Virus record (IMG/VR): IMGVR_UViG_2534681935_000039
Location: 1-30,262 of that record
Strand: one strand, 5' to 3'
Source: a virus
Lineage: Duplodnaviria; Heunggongvirae; Uroviricota; Caudoviricetes
Length of the DNA: 30,262 nucleotides
In this document: positions 222-25,297 of the stretch, in pieces
How positions within the stretch are numbered: position 1 is the stretch's first letter
Layout: the number at the start of each line of letters is the position of its first letter
Translations under genes and position numbers: made by a program
The notes under the pieces: generated by a model
The model's database searches: none
What the model was told of the DNA's origin: nothing
Seen by the model: the letters and a program-made list of their open reading frames with translations, nothing else

Positions 222-2024
222 TTAACCTCTCAAGAAACACGCCACAGCGACATCAAACAGGCTGGAATCCTGTATTGCCTGCTCACTTTCCCTGTTCGCT
301 TCATCCAGTACTTCACGCGCGCTGCGCGATTGTGGATTACCATCATCATCCAGCACGGTAATTATCATGTCAGGTGATTCAAGCAGCGAGTCTTCAGCTA
401 TGCGCAGATCAATATCTCCTGCCTGATCCGCCATCATTTTTTGTTCTGCCTGTTGCAATATTTTATCAGGCTCAAAAGGAGCTACTTCGTCTGGCGTCCT
501 GACATCTGCTGTTTTATAGAATGAAACAGCCTGAGCATTAAGTTCACTTTCTACCTGCAGTCGCCGTGCCAGTTCTGCTCGAGCTTCAAAAAACTGACCG
601 CCAGGCTCATGCGGTGCCAACGCGTTACGAGAAAATTCCAGGCGTTCTTGTGCCTGCCGGATTCGTTGGTCAATATCGCGAAGTCTGGCCTGTTTATCTG
701 ATCGAGCACGAGATAAAGCCTTACCGCTACCGGTTGGCTCTTCTGCAAGAATTTGTGCGCGCTGTTCAGTGAGATTTTCAATAATTCGTTGGCTATTAGC
801 GATTTCAGACTGGTAAACCTGTCTATCGCCACGCGGCAAAAGCTGCGCGGCCTGTTCTTCAAGCAACCGATTTTCTATAGCGCGCGCCGTTACTCCATCA
901 TCTACAGATGACAGAGCCTCATTAACTGCCTGAGACAGCAGACTCTTGCGCCCTAGAATTTCACTGAAAGATGCAGACTCAACAATGCTGGCAACGTCTA
1001 CAGGTCTCCCCTGGCTAACATCAGACATAGCTTTTCGCAGAGCCTGAATGTGAGAATTGCGCGAAAGCACGTTGATCGGCACGCCGGGAGCAATATCAAT
1101 TTCAGCATGATGAGCGGCATTCGCCGCCAGTGCAGCATCGACATCAACTGGTGAAAAATTTGGTGCGCTTGTAGACTCGCCGCGAGAGTTAATAAATCTG
1201 CCGACACCACCAAACGCCACCCCAAGAACAGCATCAATAGCAATTGCCTGTCGATCCAACACATCATACTGGTTAGCCATTTCGCTATAGCCACCATCAC
1301 GAAGCGTTTTTGCAGTAAGCCCACGCTGTGCCATACCGAACGCAATATTTGTACCTGCGGCATAGGCAATATCTGGCGTTGCACGTACTGCTGTTGCTGC
1401 GGCGCGTCGCACTGAACTTTCACCCGTCCGCGCAAGCTGAGCCGCCACACCTTCCGCCAGCGCACCACCAGCACGTAACCCGAGGCTCATAGGGATCAGT
1501 GTTCCAGCACCAGCAGTAATACCCTGCACTAATCCCGCTTCCTGCGCCGTCCTGAAATCAACACCCTGTGCTGTCAGCCGTTCAAACTCAGAAAAACCCT
1601 GTAGAGAAGTTACCGCCGCAGCACCTCCGACCGGACCACCGAGCATTGTACCGACAACAGCCTGCCCTCCCATATCGAACAACCCATAAAGGACCTGCCC
1701 GGCGGTTCCGGTTGTCGCGGCATCAGGCGTCAGCCGCTTAACCTGCTGCTCTGCTAGTTTTCTCTGCTCAGCAATGTATGAAACTGAAGTGTCATTGAGC
1801 GAGGTGTTTTCGTTAACAAACTGAGCAATCGGGGATACGATTTTATCCATCCCTGCCCATAGCAACTGATCTGGCTTTGCCACCAGCCCGGAGTACAAAC
1901 CAGACAATGCCGCTCCTACAGCATTGTCGAAAAAACCAACATCGCTGTTAAAGCCAGCTGGATTTGATGCTGCTTCGTCAAGCTGCTGATTCTGGTTTAC
2001 TGGATTAAGGCCAAAGTAACTCAT
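222..2024 (-). CDS. putative internal virion / ejection protein (600 aa)
   Basis: Gly/Ala-rich hydrophobic N-terminal third, then long Q/R/E-rich helical-looking region; ATGA start/stop overlap with upstream gene; position distal to tail tubular genes. Confidence 0.45.
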   Translation of the reverse strand: MSYFGLNPVNQNQQLDEAASNPAGFNSDVGFFDNAVGAALSGLYSGLVAKPDQLLWAGMDKIVSPIAQFVNENTSLNDTSVSYIAEQRKLAEQQVKRLTPDAATTGTAGQVLYGLFDMGGQAVVGTMLGGPVGGAAAVTSLQGFSEFERLTAQGVDFRTAQEAGLVQGITAGAGTLIPMSLGLRAGGALAEGVAAQLARTGESSVRRAAATAVRATPDIAYAAGTNIAFGMAQRGLTAKTLRDGGYSEMANQYDVLDRQAIAIDAVLGVAFGGVGRFINSRGESTSAPNFSPVDVDAALAANAAHHAEIDIAPGVPINVLSRNSHIQALRKAMSDVSQGRPVDVASIVESASFSEILGRKSLLSQAVNEALSSVDDGVTARAIENRLLEEQAAQLLPRGDRQVYQSEIANSQRIIENLTEQRAQILAEEPTGSGKALSRARSDKQARLRDIDQRIRQAQERLEFSRNALAPHEPGGQFFEARAELARRLQVESELNAQAVSFYKTADVRTPDEVAPFEPDKILQQAEQKMMADQAGDIDLRIAEDSLLESPDMIITVLDDDGNPQSRSAREVLDEANRESEQAIQDSSLFDVAVACFLRG

Positions 2025-2626
2025 TGCGGAATATCTCCGGAGAATCTCTGACGTTTCTGTGTCAGATTAAGAACAACGGGAGAACCATCATCTTTCAGCA
2101 GATAACCAGTACCAAGTTTCACCAGGTACTGACTATCGCCGTAACTTTGCAAACCATACTGACCAGGCGGTGTTTTTATCCCGGAGCCGACAACTTGTTC
2201 ATTCCAAGCCTGATTAGCCTGCTTATCGAATTGCTCTGCAGACATTCCCCACGGCAAAAGGACATTCCCCATTCCGTTATAGTCATGCACGCCACCTGTA
2301 GCTACGTTAACAGCCTGTTTCCAGACATCATTGTCAATTTCGCCTGATACCACGCCTTTTTTCGCCATCACACCAGCGTAATAATCCTTTGCGATCTCGT
2401 ATGCCATTGATGCCCCCTGAGCGTCACCAGCAAATGCATCCTTCACCATGTCAGAAAACTCAAGGCGAAGATCAGCATCTTTAGGCATCGGAATACCTTT
2501 CGCATCATCAGTACCTTTACGAGCCGCCGCGCCAGTAAGAATTGTCTGCGCAGCGGTTTCAGGAGACACGGAAACATCAGGATTAAACCAGTTTTTTTCT
2601 GCCAAAATACCACCAGGCTTATCCAT
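2021..2626 (-). CDS. hypothetical virion protein (201 aa from ATG 2626; ORF track extends to GTG 2692)
   Basis: ATG 2626-2624 overlaps stop of 2626..3477 as TGATG, suggesting translational coupling; same operon. Confidence 0.4.
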   Translation of the reverse strand: MDKPGGILAEKNWFNPDVSVSPETAAQTILTGAAARKGTDDAKGIPMPKDADLRLEFSDMVKDAFAGDAQGASMAYEIAKDYYAGVMAKKGVVSGEIDNDVWKQAVNVATGGVHDYNGMGNVLLPWGMSAEQFDKQANQAWNEQVVGSGIKTPPGQYGLQSYGDSQYLVKLGTGYLLKDDGSPVVLNLTQKRQRFSGDIPQ

Positions 2627-3477
2627 CAGTATCCCGGCAACGGCAGCAGATGGAGCGTTGGCACTGATCTGCTGTAGCGCTGACATATACACCTGCCCAC
2701 CACCAGTGCTCTGCCTGATGGTATCGAGATATGCTGCCTGTTGGGAAACTGGAGCATCACGAAGAAAACACCGATCTGATTGGCCTCGTCTTTGGAAAAG
2801 AACGTCAGTGGAGTGCCATATGACTTAGCAAGGTCACTGACCTGAGCGGCACGCAAGGCAACGCTCTGTCCAAAGTTATCCTTATTGCTCATGTCGATAG
2901 GCTTTGCCTGTCCGGAGGCAAGAGAGAACTGCACAGGATCCGACTGCCGCTGCTTTATCACCTGATTTGCAGCCGAAACAACGTTGTCATAAAGAGCTGC
3001 GCGTGCCGCATACCCCTCCCCTGTATCACCAGTATCCGGGCGTAATTGCTCAACATATGCTGTAATGCTGCTTGTCGGCATGTTGCGGAAAGAGCCTATA
3101 TACTGTCCGGCGATCTGCGTATTCTTAAACTCGGTATATCGCAGGTTTCCTTCTCTGACTCCATAAGCTGCAATAAAATCAGCCTCACCAGGTGGGTTAG
3201 GAAATTCAACTCCACGCATATACGCAACTGTCGCATCTCGAACCCGGCTGTCAATCATCGTTTTATATTCAGCCTGCTGCTGCCGACGCAGTTGATCCGC
3301 CTGCCGCATAAAACTTGCCTGCGCCTCAGAAGATGCCGCATCGAATGCTGCATTACCGGTATAGCGTTTGGTGTTGGTTGGAATTGTTGATAAACCAAGT
3401 GCAGCACTGACACCAGCAGTTAACTGCTGATCACTGTATGGCTGGCTACCGTTCTCATGATGGATAATGGCTAGCAC
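2626..3477 (-). CDS. hypothetical virion protein (283 aa); C-terminal ~40 residues look atypical
   Basis: ORF track; see finding on possible frameshift into the 2021..2692 frame near 2755-2830. Confidence 0.4.
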   Translation of the reverse strand: MLAIIHHENGSQPYSDQQLTAGVSAALGLSTIPTNTKRYTGNAAFDAASSEAQASFMRQADQLRRQQQAEYKTMIDSRVRDATVAYMRGVEFPNPPGEADFIAAYGVREGNLRYTEFKNTQIAGQYIGSFRNMPTSSITAYVEQLRPDTGDTGEGYAARAALYDNVVSAANQVIKQRQSDPVQFSLASGQAKPIDMSNKDNFGQSVALRAAQVSDLAKSYGTPLTFFSKDEANQIGVFFVMLQFPNRQHISIPSGRALVVGRCICQRYSRSVPTLHLLPLPGY

Positions 3478-3521
3478 AAAGCGCCTTCAGGGTAACAGGA
3501 TTAGATGCATCGAGAGGTTCA

Positions 3522-4049
3522 TCAGCAGAAACGCCAAGGTTGTTCGCACACTGCTTTGATATACGACATAGTGTCATTTTTATCAGTAGGCGGTGCCCAG
3601 CGATTAATTATCTCGCTGACGGTATCAATACCTTGCCGCTGATACGACATCAGGTTCCGCCCTAATGCACGAATCCCGTGTTCAGGTGTTTCGAATTTAG
3701 CAAATCGACCATCATCACCGGTCTGGCCTACCCACGGATTAGTTTTGCTGTATTCGAGATTTCCTGGGTTATTGTTGCGTATGCCACGGGCACGCTCGGA
3801 AGAGTCACTATCTGCTACAGCACGGCGAGCTCCAGCAGCAGTATCACTTAACTCGCCATTACTTTGGATGAATGCGGTCGCATTGTTTGCCGACCACTGG
3901 GACAATGCGGCATCAGCAACCTTCTCTTTAAACTCGATTTTCTTGGCCTGTATTTGCTCGTCGCTCCAGCCATGTGCAATGCCGTAATCCTCAATTTGCT
4001 GGAAAGTTTGCTTATTAGCCAATACGTATGCGGCGTTGTCGCCATACAA
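3522..4049 (-). CDS. hypothetical virion protein (175 aa)
   Basis: ORF track, co-directional and tightly packed in the virion operon; contains an RNNNPGN motif of unverified significance. Confidence 0.4.
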   Translation of the reverse strand: MYGDNAAYVLANKQTFQQIEDYGIAHGWSDEQIQAKKIEFKEKVADAALSQWSANNATAFIQSNGELSDTAAGARRAVADSDSSERARGIRNNNPGNLEYSKTNPWVGQTGDDGRFAKFETPEHGIRALGRNLMSYQRQGIDTVSEIINRWAPPTDKNDTMSYIKAVCEQPWRFC

Positions 4050-4072
4050 TGCTGCGGCATTTTTACCATTGT

Positions 4073-4534
4073 TCAGCAGCGTAGCCTGAAACTGGCCTTC
4101 TCGTAGGCATTTATTTGCCCTATCTCGTGCCGCCCGGCCTGCGTAGTGAACTGAATACGCTGCTGCTGCGCCTGCTGCATGAAAGCATTACGAGCCTGTT
4201 CATCCGGCAGCGACATAGCCAGTTGTTCGACCTGAGCATCAAACTGCTGTGTATACTCCTGACCTTTTCCAATAGCATTTTTCCCTTTCAGGTTAAGCAA
4301 ACCTGTTTCAGGGTTATTCAGCAGATCGCTGCTTATCTGGCTTAAGCTAAGAGAAGCATCCTGAGCCATAGCAACATTCGCGCGCTGTTTTGCCTGCGCA
4401 ATAATACCTGCATATTGCTCTGCAACATCGCCAAGTACATCACCGACATTTGGTGTCTGAAACGATGAGAATCCCTGCGTCGAAATCCCTCTGCTCTGAA
4501 CCTGACGGCCCGATGTTGTTGGTACAACTGGCAT
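4073..4534 (-). CDS. hypothetical virion protein (153 aa)
   Basis: ORF track; operon context. Confidence 0.4.
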   Translation of the reverse strand: MPVVPTTSGRQVQSRGISTQGFSSFQTPNVGDVLGDVAEQYAGIIAQAKQRANVAMAQDASLSLSQISSDLLNNPETGLLNLKGKNAIGKGQEYTQQFDAQVEQLAMSLPDEQARNAFMQQAQQQRIQFTTQAGRHEIGQINAYEKASFRLRC

Positions 4535-17886: not shown

Positions 17887-18775
17887 GGTTAACCTCCTGC
17901 GGCGGTTCCGGTAGCGGAATCCAGTGAGTTGCTTGCTCAATACCATTACCCGGCTTAATCGTTGCATCTCCGCGCCGAAAGGTGCTTCCGGTATAGCGTG
18001 CGGAGCATATTAGCGGTTCAACCAGAGAGCTATCGAAATTCACCGAAATAAGCACGTTCTGGCCCTTTTCAGGCATTCGCTCACTACAGCTTATCCAACT
18101 ATCCGGAGTTACCGGATAGTTGCCCGATAGTGCATTCTGCTCCAGTGATGCTTTTACAAACCACGCTGCCTGAACTATAACGCCATGAATCCAGCGCAAA
18201 TCAGCATCGCGATCTTTCTTTTTCATCTTTTCGCCACTTAAGGCCTTGCTTATGTGGCTGCGTACCAGGTCTTCATGTAATTCCTTCGCCTCCTCAATGG
18301 TGAAACCACCAGGCAGAAGAGCCGGAGTTACCGGAGAGCTGGTTGACGCTTCCGGGATTTTCCGAAAATTATTGGTTGACGAATCTTTATTTTCCCGAAA
18401 GTTTCCGGACTGAAGCATGGCTTCGCGGCAATCGTTCCAGCCTGTAGCGTATGCAGCCGCTTTGCTGCTGCCTTCAACTGGCGCATCCTGCCAATACATT
18501 TCTTCCGTCACTATCGGCGCTGGAGGGGCGGCAAATAGATATCCGCCAAAGTCAGGAAGCTCTCTAATGGCCTGTACGAATTTTTGTTTGCCTACGTCAA
18601 CCCCTAATGGGTAATGAGCTATAATCTTTGCCACCGGCTCTGCTTCCAGCGATGCCAGAGCAATCCGTGCCAGTTCTTCCGCTTCTTCTGCTGGCAGTAC
18701 AACGTTGCTACCCGGTCCGTATGTTTCGCGCCACTGCTTGATTGTCAGCAGTCGCTCTTTGGTTATAGTAGTCAT
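17879..18775 (-). CDS. hypothetical phage protein with DUF551-like C-terminus (298 aa)
   Basis: C-terminal ATHWIPLPEPP matches the recalled DUF551 signature of lambdoid nin-region proteins; GAGG RBS. Confidence 0.5.
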   Translation of the reverse strand: MTTITKERLLTIKQWRETYGPGSNVVLPAEEAEELARIALASLEAEPVAKIIAHYPLGVDVGKQKFVQAIRELPDFGGYLFAAPPAPIVTEEMYWQDAPVEGSSKAAAYATGWNDCREAMLQSGNFRENKDSSTNNFRKIPEASTSSPVTPALLPGGFTIEEAKELHEDLVRSHISKALSGEKMKKKDRDADLRWIHGVIVQAAWFVKASLEQNALSGNYPVTPDSWISCSERMPEKGQNVLISVNFDSSLVEPLICSARYTGSTFRRGDATIKPGNGIEQATHWIPLPEPPQEVNRG

Positions 18776-18982: not shown

Positions 18983-19171
18983 TCACTCTCCTTTAGTGCG
19001 CAAGTGGTTTTTCCAGCGGTTTTGCGCCGCGCTGGGCTTTTTGCAAAAACCACAATCCATCATCCCGTAATATTTCATCAACCCCATCCGTCGGTTGCTG
19101 AGTCTCACCCACTGCCAGACGCCAGGAGCGTTTCTACGAACTAACAGAATCTTTGCTTTACGGTTTTTCAT
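18983..19171 (-). CDS. small basic protein (62 aa), paralog of 19168..19344
   Basis: ORF track; ATGA overlap with upstream small ORF; N-terminus MKNRKAK shared with neighbour. Confidence 0.35.
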   Translation of the reverse strand: MKNRKAKILLVRRNAPGVWQWVRLSNRRMGLMKYYGMMDCGFCKKPSAAQNRWKNHLRTKGE

Positions 19172-19344
19172 CTTACAGCGTACCCTTTCTTCCGCCTGTT
19201 CTGTGACGCAGTAGGCTTACGCTTTGCGGCAAAAGCCACCTGACCAAATGGATGGAGTACCGCTATCTTATGGTTGCTAATAACCAGCTCCACCACACGC
19301 ACAGGTCGCTGTAAAAAAAGTCGTTTTGCCTTACGGTTTTTCAT
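19168..19344 (-). CDS. small basic protein (58 aa), paralog of 18983..19171
   Basis: Hand-translated; ATGA overlaps at both ends; below ORF-track length cut-off. Confidence 0.3.
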   Translation of the reverse strand: MKNRKAKRLFLQRPVRVVELVISNHKIAVLHPFGQVAFAAKRKPTASQNRRKKGYAVR

Positions 19345-19517
19345 CGCTTTGCTCTCCTGCGTCTCTTTGCTGCTCGTCGTGCCGCTGCAATACCGGTATG
19401 GCGGCGCTTTGGTGCCGGGATGATGTTGTCAGCCATCAGGACATACGGCTTTGCAATTAGCGCAGAAGCCCAAAAACGAGTCGGGTACGGTAACAAGCCG
19501 ATACATGCCACACGCAT
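19341..19517 (-). CDS. small Arg-rich protein (58 aa)
   Basis: Hand-translated; TAATG overlap with stop of 19517..20275; C-terminus AAARRAAKRRRRAKR. Confidence 0.3.
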   Translation of the reverse strand: MRVACIGLLPYPTRFWASALIAKPYVLMADNIIPAPKRRHTGIAAARRAAKRRRRAKR

Positions 19518-20275
19518 TACTCACCTCCTTTGATGCGAATGCCTGCGGCGCGGATTGCATCGATGACTTCAGAAACTTTGTATGCCATTACCGTTTGGTA
19601 ATCATCGTGAAAATCTGTTCGATGAAGCATGCTGCTACGTTCCGGGAGCGATATTTCCCGAGCATCCAGTTCCTTAACGCGTTCCTCCAGTTCGTAGACC
19701 CTGCATTGTTCTCTATCATCAATCAGATATAACCCAAGACATTCGCTTTCTACCCAACCGCCAAAATCATGATCGTAACGCTCACATGAAAACTCACCGT
19801 CACCGTCCTTTGTTGGAATGGTGTAACTATCTAATGGGCCACCATATGTCGGCACATTTCCCAATGTTGGATGCTCAATCCACATGAAAAATGCACGTCC
19901 GGTTATTGGGCAAAGATCTGGCCGCCATTGGTTACGAACAGCCTTGGTTTCGGATAATTCTTCAGCGTGTTGTTTTACTTCCTCAAGCTCAACTCTCAGC
20001 TTCCCTACCGTTAGCGCAATATCCTCGTTCTCCTGGTCGCGGCGTTTTATGTATTGCTGGTTTCTTTCCCGTTCATCCAGTAGTGCCAGCACGGTTTCTG
20101 GTCCGGTCAGAAATTTGAAGGCGTTGAGCGCATCAATATCCACACCGTAATCCTTAAGTTCCTGTTCAGTTAACAAATCATCATCAACTGGCAACATTAA
20201 CAGGCGTTCCATTGCCGGAATTGCACGCTCTGCCGCCTCACGCAGTGCCTGATAGTCAATTGTCATTCTCGCCAT
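19517..20275 (-). CDS. hypothetical protein, possibly ead/Ea22-like (252 aa)
   Basis: Acidic coiled-coil-like N-terminus; vague recollection of ALREAAE / LALLDER motifs in Ea22-like prophage proteins. Confidence 0.4.
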   Translation of the reverse strand: MARMTIDYQALREAAERAIPAMERLLMLPVDDDLLTEQELKDYGVDIDALNAFKFLTGPETVLALLDERERNQQYIKRRDQENEDIALTVGKLRVELEEVKQHAEELSETKAVRNQWRPDLCPITGRAFFMWIEHPTLGNVPTYGGPLDSYTIPTKDGDGEFSCERYDHDFGGWVESECLGLYLIDDREQCRVYELEERVKELDAREISLPERSSMLHRTDFHDDYQTVMAYKVSEVIDAIRAAGIRIKGGE

Positions 20276-20907
20276 CCTTCACAGTTGTAATCACTACAGC
20301 CTTCAAAATCATATGGGCTGTACTGCCAGGTTATTTTTCCGCAATGCGGACAATTCCAACGCACCTTCCCGCTTCGCGACTTCTTTCTTCTGTTCTGCTC
20401 TTTCAACCAGTCAGGCATGACCAAACCTGCGCCCTGAACCATTGTTCTGCGGTTAAAGTTATTGATATTGAACGTCCGACGCTTTGCTGCATCAGCAATG
20501 GAAAATGGCAACCAAACTATTCCTGGTTCGTTTTTGTTGGCGACGCTAAAGATGGTCGCTTTACTGAAGTCATCTGTTGGCAATCCACCGTGTTGAAGCC
20601 AGTAAACATCGTTGCCGTTCCAGCTACCTTTTTTGTAGGCCACATACGCAGTGCAATCTGACTCAATCAGGCTTTCTGTGGGGATGTACTGGCAATCAAC
20701 GTGCCACACAGCCATTGCATCCACGCTATCAGCGCAAACAGGCTGATCGATATCTCGTCCACAATTCCAGGCTTTTTGGGCTTCTTCCAGCGTGTAAACA
20801 TGAGCGCGATCGATATCAGAACTGTAACCATTGCCGTTATGGCAATGGAATGAGGCGTTATTACCCACAGTTTCACGCAAGCACATCATGTAAAAGCGGT
20901 TATTCAC
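20263..20907 (-). CDS. Cys/His-rich hypothetical protein with C-terminal zinc-ribbon-like motif (214 aa)
   Basis: Multiple Cys/His clusters including NCPHCGK...C..C at the C-terminus. Confidence 0.4.
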   Translation of the reverse strand: MNNRFYMMCLRETVGNNASFHCHNGNGYSSDIDRAHVYTLEEAQKAWNCGRDIDQPVCADSVDAMAVWHVDCQYIPTESLIESDCTAYVAYKKGSWNGNDVYWLQHGGLPTDDFSKATIFSVANKNEPGIVWLPFSIADAAKRRTFNINNFNRRTMVQGAGLVMPDWLKEQNRRKKSRSGKVRWNCPHCGKITWQYSPYDFEGCSDYNCEGWRE

Positions 20908-21211
20908 TGGTTGCCTCCTTTGCTGGGCTTTCTAACTTCTGAGTGGTTGTATCAAACTCAAACAACTTAACCACGTCATCAAACAGGACATAATCGCCAT
21001 CAGAATCTTCAGTCATGTCAGCGCCACAATCCTGACCGAACGAGTCACAACCATCCATATCAAGCTCGTATCGCTTGAGTTTTGCGATATTTGATAAATT
21101 CAGCGCCAGTACAGCAAGGTCATAAACCTCATCAGCGGTATACCCGGCACCATGCCCATACATTTCAATACGGGATATGATTTCTTCTACACGTTGTTTT
21201 GTGATCGTCAT
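20900..21211 (-). CDS. acidic hypothetical protein (103 aa)
   Basis: ORF track; overlaps neighbours by a few nt. Confidence 0.4.
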   Translation of the reverse strand: MTITKQRVEEIISRIEMYGHGAGYTADEVYDLAVLALNLSNIAKLKRYELDMDGCDSFGQDCGADMTEDSDGDYVLFDDVVKLFEFDTTTQKLESPAKEATSE

Positions 21212-21708
21212 TTTTGCTCACCTTCCTGTTCTTCCAGAAAAATACGCATAGCCTCAAGCATCTCTTCGGTGCCATACGGTGGCAACTTGTCACGCAGGAT
21301 GTGTTCAATGCTGTTAATGAACTTGCGGATTGCTTTGCGTTCAATTTCAGCCAGGAAAGCGTCGGTGGCTGGGGTTTCCGTGAAGTTGTCCTCCCAACCG
21401 TAGTACTCCTGACGACAGAAGTTATTAAATTCCTTCTCCGACTGTTTAAGCTCCGCATTCTCTGCTGCCAGCACCGAAAACTTCTCGTGTGCCAACTTAA
21501 CAGCCGCATCAGCCTGCTTAATTGACTCAATCGCTTTCTGCTGGTCTTCGGCCAGCTCATTAGCACGCACCAGTTGCACTTCCAGTTGCGTTGCCAAATC
21601 GCTGATCAGCTTTGCCACACTACGCATATCAACGGCACCACATTCTGCTTTCAGTTCCGAAGCCATCTCATACCCGGCGGCAACTAACCCTTTGATATTA
21701 CTTTCCAT
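21208..21708 (-). CDS. coiled-coil hypothetical protein (166 aa)
   Basis: ORF track; helical A/E/K/Q-rich composition. Confidence 0.4.
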   Translation of the reverse strand: MESNIKGLVAAGYEMASELKAECGAVDMRSVAKLISDLATQLEVQLVRANELAEDQQKAIESIKQADAAVKLAHEKFSVLAAENAELKQSEKEFNNFCRQEYYGWEDNFTETPATDAFLAEIERKAIRKFINSIEHILRDKLPPYGTEEMLEAMRIFLEEQEGEQK

Positions 21709-21769
21709 CTTTACCCTCGCTTATCCACATAACTTATTGATTACATTGATAACTAAAAAGATCGTCGAT

Positions 21770-22114
21770 TCAGAACTCTTCGATGTTCCAGCCACCACCT
21801 GCTTTCTTTGGCTTAACCGTTACCCCGATGATTCGGAACGGATACTGATCTGCGGCGACTTTGGTTTTCACCCTGGCGTCGTCGGTCCAGAAACCTTTCA
21901 CTTCGTGCAGTTCCATCTCGCCGGTGGCGAGCATCACAGCGAAATCTGGCGTATAGAACGTGTTATCAGCTAACCGCAGCTTGATACCCTCGAATCGATA
22001 CCAGACGATTTCTCCTGCACGTTTACGCAGCTCAAGGTGCTGGCAATACGCATATTCTGTTTTGTTTATCTGGCCTGTTTTGAGTCGACCAAGAGCCTGT
22101 ATCTGTTTTCTCAT
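21770..22114 (-). CDS. DUF1064-like phage protein (114 aa)
   Basis: N-terminal MRKQIQALGRLKTGQ and YTPDF...HEVKG resemble the recalled DUF1064 family; first gene downstream of an operator-flanked promoter. Confidence 0.45.
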   Translation of the reverse strand: MRKQIQALGRLKTGQINKTEYAYCQHLELRKRAGEIVWYRFEGIKLRLADNTFYTPDFAVMLATGEMELHEVKGFWTDDARVKTKVAADQYPFRIIGVTVKPKKAGGGWNIEEF

Positions 22115-22117
22115 GAT

Positions 22118-22132
22118 TTACCCCTGAGGTAA
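22118..22132. promoter_or_regulatory. operator-like dyad S3: TTACCC-CTG-AGGTAA
   Basis: Abuts the -10 of the minus-strand promoter and overlaps the RBS region of 21770..22114. Confidence 0.5.
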
Positions 22133-22160
22133 TTAAAAACCACATAAGACACGAAATCAA
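22132..22160 (-). promoter_or_regulatory. early promoter (minus strand): -35 TTGATT, 17-bp spacer, -10 TTTAAT
   Basis: Read on the minus strand at 22160-22155 and 22137-22132; flanked by S4 20 bp upstream and S3 overlapping the -10 end. Confidence 0.45.
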
Positions 22161-22179
22161 TAGATTTTAGAATATTTTA

Positions 22180-22194
22180 TTACCTCATAGGTAA
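22180..22194. promoter_or_regulatory. operator-like dyad S4: TTACCT-CAT-AGGTAA
   Basis: Perfect dyad, extended to ATTACC...GGTAAT. Confidence 0.55.
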
Positions 22195-22231
22195 TTATCG
22201 AGACGTAAAAAAATGCGCTATCGCGCTGGTA

Positions 22232-24123: not shown

Positions 24124-24138
24124 TTACCTTTGAGGTAC
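24124..24138. promoter_or_regulatory. operator-like dyad S5: TTACCT-TTG-AGGTAC (one mismatch)
   Basis: Located just beyond the cro-like terminator and upstream of the 66-aa gene. Confidence 0.4.
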
Positions 24139-24449: not shown

Positions 24450-24478
24450 ATAATAAATATTCACCCATAAGGTAACAA
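24450..24478 (-). promoter_or_regulatory. pR-like promoter (minus strand): -35 TTGTTA, 17-bp spacer, -10 TATTAT
   Basis: Read on minus strand at 24478-24473 and 24455-24450; operator S6 occupies the spacer. Confidence 0.45.
24461..24475. promoter_or_regulatory. operator-like dyad S6: TCACCC-ATA-AGGTAA (one mismatch)
   Basis: Within the spacer of the pR-like promoter. Confidence 0.45.
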
Positions 24479-24491
24479 AAATCAAGGATAG

Positions 24492-24506
24492 TTACCTATG
24501 AGGTGC
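24492..24506. promoter_or_regulatory. operator-like dyad S7: TTACCT-ATG-AGGTGC (two mismatches in right half)
   Basis: Centre 31 bp from S6 and 17 bp from S8. Confidence 0.4.
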
Positions 24507-24508
24507 AT

Positions 24509-24523
24509 TTACCTGTTGGGTAA
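24509..24523. promoter_or_regulatory. operator-like dyad S8: TTACCT-GTT-GGGTAA
   Basis: Third site of the divergent immunity region, nearest the repressor gene. Confidence 0.5.
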
Positions 24524-24578: not shown

Positions 24579-25163
24579 ATGAAAAGTATCCAGGACGTCC
24601 GCAGGCAAAATCTCAACGACTTGATCGACCGTGAATTCAATGGTGTTCAGACGCGGATGGCTGAAAAACTTGGAACTCAGGCAAATCTGGTAAACCGCTG
24701 GGCTCTTGGCAAGAAGGTTATCGGCGACCAGGTTGCGCGAAAAATTGAAGCTGCCGCCAATAAACCCCGTAACTGGCTTGATATCGATCGCTCGCTTTCT
24801 CAGGAAGGTTTTCAGCCTGTCGGACCAAGCGACATTGGTCAGCTGGCGGCTCACAACCTGGAACGCTGGATGAGCGAAAGCCGCGACCTTTCAACACAGG
24901 GAAAACTTCACCGCGCATCCGGCGTAGCCCAGGTGACAATCAGCCGCCTGTTAAACAATGAGGTCAGCGTTTCCATTTCCACCCTGGAGAATGTTGCATC
25001 CGCATTCGGGCGTCACGGCTATGAATTACTGATTCACCCGCACGACCCTGCGACCATCAACTATGATCGCTCGCGCTACGCATTGTTACCCGAAACCGAG
25101 AAAGCAAAGATCGAAAGTTACATTGAATTTGTCATCAACCAGAACGAAAAAAACAAACAATAA
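24579..25163 (+). CDS. prophage repressor candidate with two tandem HTH (XRE-like) domains and no recognisable LexA/S24 peptidase domain (194 aa)
   Basis: N-terminal QTRMAEKLGTQANLVNRWALGKK and second LSTQGKLHRASGVAQVTISRLLN HTH-like segments; divergent from the cro-like gene; own terminator downstream. Confidence 0.55.
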   Translation: MKSIQDVRRQNLNDLIDREFNGVQTRMAEKLGTQANLVNRWALGKKVIGDQVARKIEAAANKPRNWLDIDRSLSQEGFQPVGPSDIGQLAAHNLERWMSESRDLSTQGKLHRASGVAQVTISRLLNNEVSVSISTLENVASAFGRHGYELLIHPHDPATINYDRSRYALLPETEKAKIESYIEFVINQNEKNKQ

Positions 25164-25220: not shown

Positions 25221-25235
25221 TTACCTAATGGGTAA
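25221..25235. promoter_or_regulatory. operator-like dyad S9: TTACCT-AAT-GGGTAA
   Basis: 20 bp upstream of the TTGACA -35 of the pL-like promoter. Confidence 0.5.
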
Positions 25236-25254
25236 TTTTTTTAACTCATATCTA

Positions 25255-25283
25255 TTGACATCAAACCAGATACGCATAATTAT
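25255..25283 (+). promoter_or_regulatory. pL-like promoter: -35 TTGACA (25255-25260), 17-bp spacer, -10 AATTAT (25278-25283)
   Basis: Consensus -35; -10 only moderate; flanked by S9 and S10 with the same spacing as the promoter at 22132-22160. Confidence 0.5.
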
Positions 25284-25297
25284 TACCTCAACGGTAA
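25283..25297. promoter_or_regulatory. operator-like dyad S10: TTACCT-CAA-CGGTAA
   Basis: Overlaps the last base of the -10 and the predicted transcription start. Confidence 0.5.

Follow-up and report, generated by a model that had tools for sequence, protein, structure and literature searches.

A probable early accessory operon of exchangeable 'ea'-type modules in a phiV10/epsilon15-like E. coli prophage

The Ea22 protein of phage lambda is encoded by an early gene, is pro-lysogenic and tetrameric, and consists of an N-terminal segment, a coiled coil, and a variable C-terminal domain (CTD) (PMC10834534). For phiV10, the repressor has the same sequence as that of ZX5, whose overexpression blocks lytic transcription (PMC9782041). 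Here we analyzed four minus-strand open reading frames (ORFs) of 166, 103, 214, and 252 aa in a 30,262-nt stretch of viral DNA (IMG/VR record IMGVR_UViG_2534681935_000039), referred to below as the window. The initial annotation likened the locus to one in lambdoid phages, but the window is a phiV10/epsilon15-like (Uetakevirus) E. coli prophage, and thus a podovirus. The literature found covers Ea22 of lambda and Stx phages; searches on the other three families returned nothing, and three of the four genes have no experimentally known function. Our preferred reading, to which we assign a probability of roughly 60%, is that the four ORFs form an early, non-essential accessory operon of the Uetakevirus prophage, made of exchangeable modules and probably silenced by the repressor in the lysogen.

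Genes, protein families, mosaicism and variability, conserved intergenic architecture, and palindrome enrichment and geometry were computed directly. The sizes of the four ORFs and their 4- to 13-nt overlaps, as originally described, agree with the coordinates in the program-made ORF list (Table 1). The overlap is 4 nt (ATGA) between the 166- and 103-aa ORFs, 8 nt (GTGAATAA) between the 103- and 214-aa ORFs, and 13 nt between the 214- and 252-aa ORFs, and each start is preceded by what reads as a Shine-Dalgarno-like motif. For the 252-aa ORF, this motif overlaps the first ATG and is separated by 8 nt from a second ATG downstream at 20266 (MTIDY...), which is the N-terminus found in most homologs. 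Because both the motif spacing and the N-terminus of most homologs fit the second ATG, translation probably yields a 249-aa product, and the overlap is then 4 nt (ATGA). Each of the four proteins matches a PHROG family (E 1e-41 to 1e-119), and their homologs show protein-level conservation across genera; the four ORFs are genes and not chance ORFs. The four proteins and their neighbors gave nothing above threshold when scanned against NCBIfam and PADLOC, PADLOC-DB v2 at E<=0.1 gave 0 matches for the four proteins and three neighboring proteins, and single-sequence PDB searches with all four proteins gave nothing significant.

Table 1. Features of the accessory locus and its flanks, by position in the window
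Feature	Positions	Strand	Details
Three tandem small basic ORFs (58, 58, and 62 aa)	18983-19517	minus	pI 11.3-12; continue the same gene string
Ead/Ea22-like protein, 252 aa (probably 249 aa, start 20266)	19517-20275	minus	Pfam PF13935; ATG start; motif GAAGGA
214-aa protein	20263-20907	minus	phrog_2457; GTG start; Shine-Dalgarno motif AAGGAGG
103-aa strongly acidic protein	20900-21211	minus	phrog_3126; pI 4.2, 23 D+E; ATG start; motif GGTGAG
166-aa acidic EaE-like protein	21208-21708	minus	pI 4.7; ATG start; motif GAGGG; PHROG and tblastn
DUF1064 gene (endonuclease / Holliday-junction-resolvase-like)	21770-22114	minus	Pfam PF06356, 29.7 bits (cut-off 24.7)
Second operator-like palindrome	22118-22132		abuts the -10 hexamer and transcription start region
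Promoter-like site TTGATT-17-TTTAAT	22132-22160	minus	upstream of DUF1064; invariant in five Uetakevirus genomes
Operator-like palindrome TTACC-N5-GGTAA	22180-22194		ends 20 nt upstream of the -35 hexamer
Terminator-like hairpin GCGC-GATA-GCGC, then T7	22207-22226	minus	directly 3' of the P-like gene
Promoter TTGACA-17-AATTAT	25255-25283	plus	beside the repressor gene; same layout as the 22132-22160 site

The gene order in the window is cro-like, O-like, P-like, DUF1064, accessory cassette, and TerS, so that the four accessory genes sit 3' of the O-like, P-like, and DUF1064 genes. The DUF1064 protein matches phrog_190 (E 7e-42), and its gene, the first after the promoter-like site, is kept in all relatives compared. 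Beyond the cassette, the 58-aa ORF at 19168-19344 and the 62-aa ORF are paralogs (37% identity, E 9e-8), and homologs of the small basic ORFs are annotated as genes in the RM12581 prophage. The cassette leads into the terminase genes, and no gene in between carries a Q antiterminator annotation. A truncated portal gene was considered and rejected; PAS61 has an internal duplication instead.

From DUF1064 to the small basic ORFs, close Uetakevirus relatives differ in gene content, which bears out the original description of the four as variable accessory genes rather than housekeeping genes. At this position PAS61 has Eae, a 198-aa protein, a 63-aa protein, and Ea22; phiV10 has an eae-like gene, a 74-aa ORF, and an Ea22-like gene; FDAARGOS_1285 has 187-aa, 104-aa, and Ea22-like genes and lacks the 214-aa gene; and AF14 has 146-aa, 98-aa, 214-aa, and Ea22-like genes. 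In the phage and complete E. coli collections, no record covered at least 80% of a 2.9-kb query in one place. A lambdoid prophage carries the same block at ~97% nucleotide identity over 72% of this query, between erf/anti-RecBCD and xis/int; this location falls in the leftward early operon, in what is called the 'ea' region in P22 and exo-xis in lambda. In P7, the segment holding the 214-aa and Ea22-like genes matches at 99% nucleotide identity over 43% of the query. Across complete E. coli genomes, the 214-aa gene has 289 matching places, 181 of them on plasmids, chiefly ~80-100 kb records that resemble P1/P7-type phage-plasmids. Every E. coli copy among the matches listed abuts an Ea22-like gene, and the two genes may be functionally paired in the E. 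coli lineage. In six more distant contexts (Acinetobacter, Methyloprofundus, Yersinia, F116, and two Vibrio phages), no neighbor is annotated or Pfam-typed as Ea22-like or EaE-like; a phmmer comparison with the other three proteins, covering the Acinetobacter, Methyloprofundus, and Yersinia contexts, found none of them, and outside the Enterobacteriaceae the 214-aa protein showed no conserved gene partners.

For the 252-aa protein, residues 5-110 score 99.4 bits with the Pfam Ead_Ea22 model, well over its cut-off of 27 (E 3.3e-28). Together with the EaE-like assignment of the 166-aa protein, this overturns the earlier view that none of the four proteins could be assigned. The protein has a helical/coiled-coil N-terminus, a highly conserved core of ~90 aa, and a variable tail, with C119, H132, C161, and H166 (249-aa numbering) as invariant core residues. 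In the AF2 model, helices at 5-23, 34-53, and 56-111 (pLDDT ~80-97) are followed by a separate beta-rich region, which is the layout described for Ea22, where a short N-terminal segment leads into a long coiled coil and then a separate CTD. The core at 112-200 is poorly modeled (pLDDT 35-57), probably due to the near-invariant alignment in that region. Foldseek returned coiled-coil/BAR-type matches (best E 0.044), and this search is uninformative for the core because the core is modeled poorly. As for homology to the lambda Ea22 CTD, neither the whole 252-aa protein nor the core matched any PDB sequence, and Foldseek gave no significant match with a CTD model that is of low confidence. The core is also found as a standalone protein, duplicated, or fused to DUF4406.

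The 166-aa protein has matches in phrog_492 and phrog_614, and the first 71 aa align to positions 1-71 of phrog_250. By tblastn, the phiV10 'eae-like protein' is 50.7% identical to it over 80% of its length, and P22 eae is 54.5% identical over only 31%; in a Pfam scan, no match reached the cut-off. Judged by these alignments, the protein is a mosaic of segments common to many phage proteins. Homologs of the 103-aa protein are at least 77% identical among the matches listed, are found in (pro)phages of E. coli and Salmonella, and all carry the name hypothetical; the family profile gave no matches against PDB sequences. Over its first ~55 aa, the 103-aa protein is similar to the N-terminus of the DUF551 protein encoded downstream (33% over 58 aa).

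The 214-aa protein is the Cys/His-rich protein singled out in the initial annotation. It does contain 10 Cys and 6 His, but among its Cys only the four C-terminal ones are invariant, with C186, C189, C204, and C209 among the residues that are invariant in 46 family sequences. The two Cys pairs (CxxC...CxxxxC) are conserved across the family; the first is present in 91% of distant representatives, and the second is present with variable spacing. The C-terminus is therefore predicted to be a four-Cys zinc ribbon, preceded by two N-terminal alpha/beta repeats of ~70 aa (internal repeat, hhalign P 0.0011) and a basic linker. The conserved motifs VDxQ and GND occur in the duplicated alpha/beta domain. 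The AF2 model has a pLDDT of 93.4; Foldseek found no fold match for it in the PDB (best E 0.64, TM <0.2), and a BFVD search gave partial matches only, to short uncharacterized phage proteins.

This protein is identical to a protein of the P1-like phage SJ46 and near-identical to P7 Upf87.6, and the HK620-like phage IME10 encodes a hypothetical protein with 95% identity to it; the PHROG family of the 214-aa protein, like that of the 103-aa protein, is annotated only as hypothetical. The family comprises 856 clusters at 50% identity (E<=1e-3), spans phages of Enterobacterales, Yersinia, Acinetobacter, Vibrio, Pseudomonas (F116), and Burkholderia, and has no Pfam model; a scan of longer or fused homologs for partner domains found no Pfam domain in any. 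In a profile search of PDB sequences, residues 154-210 weakly match the eL43/L37a zinc ribbon (E 0.038, 16.9 bits). This stretch aligns to several eukaryote and archaeal eL43s, which count as one observation because they are mutually homologous, and the alignment spans the basic helix before the first CxxC as well as the second Cys pair. The other 150 residues have no counterpart in eL43, and E values are only 0.04-0.5; the likeness is a marginal resemblance of one small domain and does not suggest family membership. P7 Upf87.6 carries the annotation note 'putative tyrosine protein phosphatase', and FHCHNGNGYSSDI in the 214-aa translation fits the PROSITE-style pattern for these enzymes. We rejected this reading: position +6 is Tyr rather than the Arg required by C-x5-R, and the motif Cys22 is not invariant, with Ala in 47% of 87 family representatives.

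Tentatively, and with considerable doubt, we propose that the 214-aa proteins are a large family, so far without annotation, of temperate-phage early proteins with a new fold (a tandem-duplicated alpha/beta domain, a basic linker, and an eL43-like zinc ribbon), a nucleic-acid-directed activity, and direct repressor control from a third early promoter. Such an activity could, for example, be binding of host or phage RNA or DNA that reprograms early infection or blocks host defense. Widespread, with a confident model, no solved structural relative, no Pfam entry, and no published function found, the family would be a cheap target for structure/function work on phage 'dark matter'.

The initial annotation called an early promoter at the site upstream of DUF1064. 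Its hexamers are weak (9/12), the site fails a generic promoter scan, and promoter-like matches in the region are no commoner than in shuffles (8 found vs 12.2 expected), but the site is flanked by palindromes in the same way as the repressor-side promoter and is invariant across the five genomes compared; it is probably the start of the accessory operon. The motif TTACC-N5-GGTAA occurs 10 times in the window, where 0.38 matches are expected. The repressor gene, at 24579-25163, encodes 194 aa. Paired palindromes occupy the divergent region between the cro-like gene and the repressor gene, and they also sit at the promoter that follows the repressor gene and at the one preceding DUF1064. Across the five phages, the half-sites stay constant and the 5 nt at the center differ. 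The pair before DUF1064 is spaced 62 nt apart, as is the pair at 25221-25235 and 25283-25297, and the two promoters align with identical palindrome geometry. The terminator-like hairpin is also invariant in relatives, and the phiV10 record annotates a putative rho-independent terminator at the equivalent hairpin; the 4-bp stem is too short for the terminator scan used.

From this arrangement we infer that a separate, repressor-controlled early operon starts before DUF1064. The operon is most likely held off by the repressor, since this motif also flanks the promoters around the repressor gene, although the palindromes could instead bind a Cro-like or other regulator. A parallel is found in the P7 hea operon (upf87.6, upf88.3), where the 214-aa and Ea22-like genes lie downstream of the annotated C1 operator Op(hea), and C1 control of that operon resembles the operator-flanked promoter proposed here. 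P7 differs in being a phage-plasmid and in its repressor and operator sequence, and P7 Upf87.4 is not homologous to the 103-aa protein. More broadly, the TTACC-N5-GGTAA sites suggest that phiV10-like phages hold several transcription units under direct repressor control, which, if it includes the accessory operon, would account for the timing of the accessory genes.

In the scheme that follows, we infer promoter activity, repressor binding, translational coupling, and every biochemical role from the features described above. Transcription of the replication genes would meet the terminator-like hairpin just 3' of the P-like gene, and the promoter before DUF1064 would then drive DUF1064 and the four genes, followed by the small basic ORFs, the DUF551 gene, and genes beyond. 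The prophage repressor would most likely keep this operon off in the lysogen, and the operon would come on at once upon infection or induction. The stop/start overlaps ATGA, GTGAATAA, and ATGA suggest translational coupling. The four proteins themselves would be independent swappable modules of the 'ea' (P22) / exo-xis (lambda) type, rather than a four-part machine. By analogy with lambda and Stx-phage Ea22, the Ead/Ea22-like protein may be a coiled-coil scaffold that displays a swappable C-terminal domain and probably tunes the lysis-lysogeny choice via some partner; the EaE-like protein may be a second coiled-coil protein of the same construction. The 214-aa protein probably binds nucleic acid by its basic linker and four-Cys zinc ribbon, with the duplicated N-terminal domain giving specificity, and the 103-aa acidic protein probably works through binding another protein.

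An alternative, anti-restriction or anti-immunity role for small, acidic, rapidly exchanged early proteins is to inhibit host defense at the start of infection. In this case the 103-aa protein would be a mimic or an inhibitor, and a nuclease or sensor would be the target of the zinc-ribbon protein. The early placement under probable repressor control, the hypervariable gene content among near-identical phages, the strongly acidic character of three of the four proteins (pI 4.2-4.7), and the position after the anti-RecBCD genes in the lambdoid prophage are all consistent with such a role. Homologs of the 214-aa protein elsewhere also adjoin DNA methyltransferases, a Mu Gam-like end-protection gene, and exonucleases, although the links are loose and only a few loci show them. 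We nevertheless consider counter-defense rather unlikely: the four proteins have no sequence or fold similarity to characterized proteins, known anti-defense proteins included, and lambda Ea22, the sole experimentally studied relative, affects the lysis-lysogeny choice and not evasion (PMC10834534).

The genes could also encode auxiliary replication or recombination factors that aid the O-like, P-like, and DUF1064 proteins in DNA binding, primosome loading, or junction processing, as their place directly after those genes might suggest. A zinc ribbon with a basic linker would fit nucleic-acid binding, the P7 214-aa gene follows a gene annotated as DNA primase, and the Acinetobacter homolog has cro/cII-like genes on one side and, on the other, a DUF1376 gene, of a type usually regarded as replication-associated. 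The 214-aa gene is, however, missing from close relatives with the same replication module, adjoins xis/int far from replication genes elsewhere, and encodes a protein without similarity to known replication or recombination families, which makes this role quite improbable. The phage-challenge experiment suggested in the initial annotation implied that the genes defend the host. Variable accessory loci of prophages often carry defense genes, so protection of the lysogen or superinfection exclusion would suit this locus, as would the many plasmid-borne E. coli copies of the 214-aa gene on P1/P7-type-looking records. However, none of the four proteins has a PADLOC match or an ATPase, nuclease, or other effector-type domain typical of defense systems. 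Since the genes lie within a lytic early unit behind operator-flanked promoters, and in P7 behind the C1 operator, they are expected to be silent in the lysogen, and a defense role is very unlikely.

The label 'nin-equivalent' given to the locus holds for position alone: like the lambda nin region, the cassette follows a P-like gene and consists of short, overlapping, dispensable genes. In contrast to nin, none of the four proteins matches a Nin Pfam family, and the homologous block in the lambdoid prophage sits in the leftward early operon. The genes of the P22 'ea' region (eae, ead) and the hka genes of HK620/IME10 are likewise non-essential, mosaic early genes. The 166-aa protein has segments in common with P22 eae, whereas the remainder, beyond the aligned 31%, stems from other modules. 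Like lambda and Stx-phage Ea22, the 252-aa protein is the product of an early gene, with a coiled coil and an exchangeable C-terminal domain (PMC10834534). The lambdoid prophage has a near-identical copy of this gene in its exo-xis-equivalent region. Its C-terminal part differs in having no detectable similarity to the solved lambda CTD and in consisting of the ~90-aa core with invariant C, H, C, and H, a second short coiled coil, and a tail. The gene is also placed differently, 3' of the replication genes instead of between recombination and excision genes as in lambda. The Ea22 analogy is thus confined to the N-terminal/coiled-coil part. As a discovery the locus is of little importance, being an ordinary swap set common to many temperate phages of gut bacteria. 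It is best filed as the Uetakevirus counterpart of the lambdoid 'ea'/exo-xis cassette, rather than as a nin region or a defense island.

The four overlapping minus-strand ORFs lie exactly at the positions and on the strand reported in the initial annotation. All four proteins match PHROG families (E-values 1e-41 to 1e-119) and have homologs at the protein level; the ORFs are genuine genes rather than chance reading frames. Successive ORFs overlap by 4 nt (ATGA), 8 nt (GTGAATAA), and 13 nt, and a Shine-Dalgarno-like motif can be read ahead of each of the four starts, with AAGGAGG upstream of the GTG start of the 214-aa gene. In the 252-aa ORF, GAAGGA overlaps into the first ATG; a second ATG (20266, MTIDY...) lies 8 nt beyond and corresponds to the N-terminus in most homologs. 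Based on this spacing and the homolog N-termini, the overlap of the 214-aa and 252-aa genes is probably another ATGA rather than 13 nt.

Features of the window discussed in the text, with positions, strand, and start codon.
Feature	Position	Strand	Start
166-aa ORF	21208-21708	minus	ATG
103-aa ORF	20900-21211	minus	ATG
214-aa ORF	20263-20907	minus	GTG
252-aa ORF	19517-20275	minus	ATG
~90-aa core of 252-aa protein	19670-19945		
Three small basic ORFs	18983-19517		
58-aa basic ORF, paralog of 62-aa ORF	19168-19344		
DUF551 gene	17879-18775		
61-aa ORF	17226 to about 17044 (TGA)		ATG
TerS ORF, extended form	from 17047		TTG
Terminator-like hairpin	17038-17021		
Portal ORF	11827-13506		
Four ORFs matching one PAS61 ORF	2021-4534		
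Palindrome sites	13818-13832, 16969-17001, 22118-22194, 24124-24138, 24461-24523, 25221-25297		

Contrary to the initial reading, the phage is not lambdoid. The window matches Uetakevirus phages (PAS61, phiv142-3, phiV10, ZX5) at ~97% identity over about 80% of its first 25 kb, and many E. coli prophages also match. On the minus strand, a cro-like gene is followed by a small ORF, an O-like/DnaT-like gene, a lambda P-like gene (PF06992), DUF1064, the four genes, three small basic ORFs, a 93-aa ORF, a DUF551 gene, two further ORFs, and then the terminase genes. The three basic ORFs (58, 58, and 62 aa) are in tandem with 1- to 4-nt overlaps and have pI values of 11.3-12; one 58-aa ORF and the 62-aa ORF are paralogs (37% identity). 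Elsewhere in the window, a single 935-aa ORF of PAS61 corresponds to four ORFs whose pieces occupy three frames, and ~290 nt are missing, reflecting either a prophage defective in this virion protein or frameshift errors in the sequence. The portal ORF is 559 aa, compared to 735 aa annotated in PAS61 (12114-14321). PAS61 portal residues 1-293 and 250-735 each align to the window ORF; the difference therefore reflects an internal ~176-aa duplication or an assembly artefact in PAS61 and not a deletion in the window.

Gene content between DUF1064 and the small basic ORFs differs among close relatives, consistent with the initial description of accessory, variable genes of mostly unknown function. 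PAS61 carries Eae (215 aa), 198-aa, 63-aa, and Ea22 (232 aa) genes, and phiV10 carries eae-like, 74-aa, and Ea22-like genes. The FDAARGOS_1285 prophage has 187-aa, 104-aa, and Ea22-like genes and no 214-aa gene, while the AF14 prophage has 146-aa, 98-aa, 214-aa, and Ea22-like genes. No record in the phage collection or among 5,426 complete E. coli genomes holds at least 80% of a 2.9-kb query (19300-22200, spanning the four genes and their flanks) at a single location; some part of it occurs in 2,818 of these genomes. The 214-aa gene was found in 248 complete E. coli genomes; most of the places that match it are plasmid-borne, chiefly in records of ~80-100 kb resembling P1/P7-type phage-plasmids. 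In every case its distant homologs fall in the early region of a temperate phage or prophage, for example following cro in Acinetobacter, close to xis/int in Yersinia and Vibrio phage H20, and adjoining methyltransferase, Mu Gam-like, and exonuclease genes in F116 and Vibrio D96a (the phmmer check of these loci covered Acinetobacter, Methyloprofundus, and Yersinia only). Their neighbors are unrelated, which argues that the four genes are independent modules and not a single conserved machine.

None of the four had been considered assignable, but homology places two of them. The 252-aa protein is a member of the Ead/Ea22-like family by its match to PF13935 (99.4 bits against a Pfam cut-off of 27). 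AlphaFold predicts confident helices at residues 5-111 and a separate, poorly modelled, beta-rich C-terminal part. The latter contains a ~90-aa core (residues ~111-200) that is near-invariant across E. coli and Salmonella proteins, with >50 invariant columns including C119, H132, C161, and H166 (numbered in the probable 249-aa form), while the N- and C-terminal flanks are swapped freely among homologs. Elsewhere the core stands alone (134-154 aa), is duplicated in tandem (P0408), or is joined to DUF4406; neither Pfam nor PDB sequences gave a match to it, and no fold match was significant. Lambda Ea22 is a tetrameric early protein that favors lysogeny, and its C-terminal domain, thought to touch an unknown partner, differs between phages (PMC10834534). 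The 166-aa protein is a mosaic, EaE-like protein: across 80% of its length it shares 50.7% identity with the phiV10 "eae-like protein", and it has shorter segments in common with P22 eae, ES18 gp43, and Stx-phage proteins. The 103-aa protein, with a pI of 4.2, is strongly acidic and belongs to a narrow family, phrog_3126, whose members are all annotated as hypothetical; it has no relative among PDB sequences. Its first ~55 residues resemble the N-terminus of the DUF551 protein encoded five genes downstream (33% over 58 aa, E-value 0.002 against a small database), suggesting that the two have in common an N-terminal module of the sort that marks recombination joints in such cassettes.

The label "Cys/His-rich" fits the composition of the 214-aa protein (10 Cys, 6 His), but its only invariant cysteines are the C-terminal C186, C189, C204, and C209, which form a CxxC...CxxxxC zinc-ribbon pattern after a basic linker. 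An exhaustive profile search of this family (phrog_2457) returned 856 clusters (50% identity, E≤1e-3), almost all of them ~200-220 aa long, and no Pfam domains were found in the members scanned. The AlphaFold model is confident (pLDDT 93.4, pTM 0.81); Foldseek found no similar fold among solved structures (best E-value 0.64) and, among viral predicted structures, partial matches alone, to short uncharacterised viral proteins. Within the N-terminal 150 residues of the model the secondary-structure pattern recurs, and the two halves align with an hhalign P of 0.0011; this region looks like two tandem ~70-aa units. The family profile gives a weak hit to ribosomal protein eL43 (E-value 0.038), over its zinc ribbon and the basic helix ahead of it; we treat this as a lead only. 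The P7 ortholog, Upf87.6 (NC_050152.1, 3675-4319), is noted as a "putative tyrosine protein phosphatase". We rejected this reading for the family, as the motif has no Arg and 47% of representatives carry Ala in place of its Cys; the note apparently derives from a short pattern match with a Cys unconserved in the family.

The P-like gene and DUF1064 are separated by 117 nt that are 96% conserved across five phages. This gap begins with a GCGC-GATA-GCGC hairpin and a T7 run (a terminator in the phiV10 annotation); next come a TTACC-N5-GGTAA palindrome, the initially proposed promoter (TTGATT-17-TTTAAT), and a second palindrome abutting the -10 hexamer. Allowing at most 1 mismatch, the window has 10 copies of the palindrome, compared with a chance expectation of 0.38. 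Clusters lie in the region between the divergent cro-like and repressor genes, around the promoter that directly follows the repressor gene, ahead of DUF1064, and where the terminase operon begins; in the first two of these the sites are paired. By alignment, the promoter following the repressor gene and that before DUF1064 have identical operator-promoter geometry. Among the five phages the half-sites never vary but the five bases between them do, as expected for a dimeric DNA-binding protein, and the palindromes look like a candidate operator set of the prophage repressor. According to the ZX5 paper, ZX5 and phiV10 have repressors of identical sequence, and overexpression of the ZX5 repressor shuts off lytic transcription (PMC9782041). 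We infer that the accessory operon has its own putative repressor-controlled early promoter; if the palindromes are repressor operators, this phage would have several directly repressed transcription units. The TTG-extended TerS ORF, likewise annotated in PAS61, spans a terminator-like hairpin as well as two of the operator-like palindromes; the genuine start is probably the pair of ATGs near 16966/16963 ("ggttATGATGcctgctgaa"). A 61-aa ORF lies between a 113-aa regulator-like gene and the terminator before TerS.

Most likely, the four genes encode dispensable modulators that are silenced by the repressor and expressed immediately early. Two of these, coiled-coil scaffold proteins whose heads can be swapped, would act on the lysis-lysogeny balance or host physiology, the zinc-ribbon protein probably binds nucleic acid, and the small acidic protein probably binds another protein. 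Early timing, acidity, hypervariability, and neighboring DNA-protection genes would also suit a counter-defence cassette, an unlikely reading given the absence of homology to known inhibitors. Helpers of replication or recombination are more doubtful still: the genes adjoin the replication genes and include a zinc ribbon, but they are missing from relatives with the same replication module. A defence protecting the lysogen is very improbable; although the locus is variable and accessory, PADLOC returned 0 matches and the genes are probably silent in the lysogen.

The cassette is of an already well-known mosaic early accessory kind, and only two parts deserve further attention: the uncharacterised 214-aa family and the operator-flanked putative third early promoter. 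A lambdoid prophage of E. coli O145:H28 RM12581 carries a block of 153-aa, 102-aa, 214-aa, and two Ea22-like genes, accompanied by homologs of the small basic ORFs and by DUF551, between erf/anti-RecBCD and xis/int (gene matches confirmed by phmmer). This is the P22 "ea" or lambda exo-xis position, so the cassette is exo-xis-type by descent; "nin-equivalent", as first proposed, is true only of where it sits in this phage. The P7 versions of the 214-aa and Ea22-like genes lie in an operon that the depositors placed under the C1 operator Op(hea).
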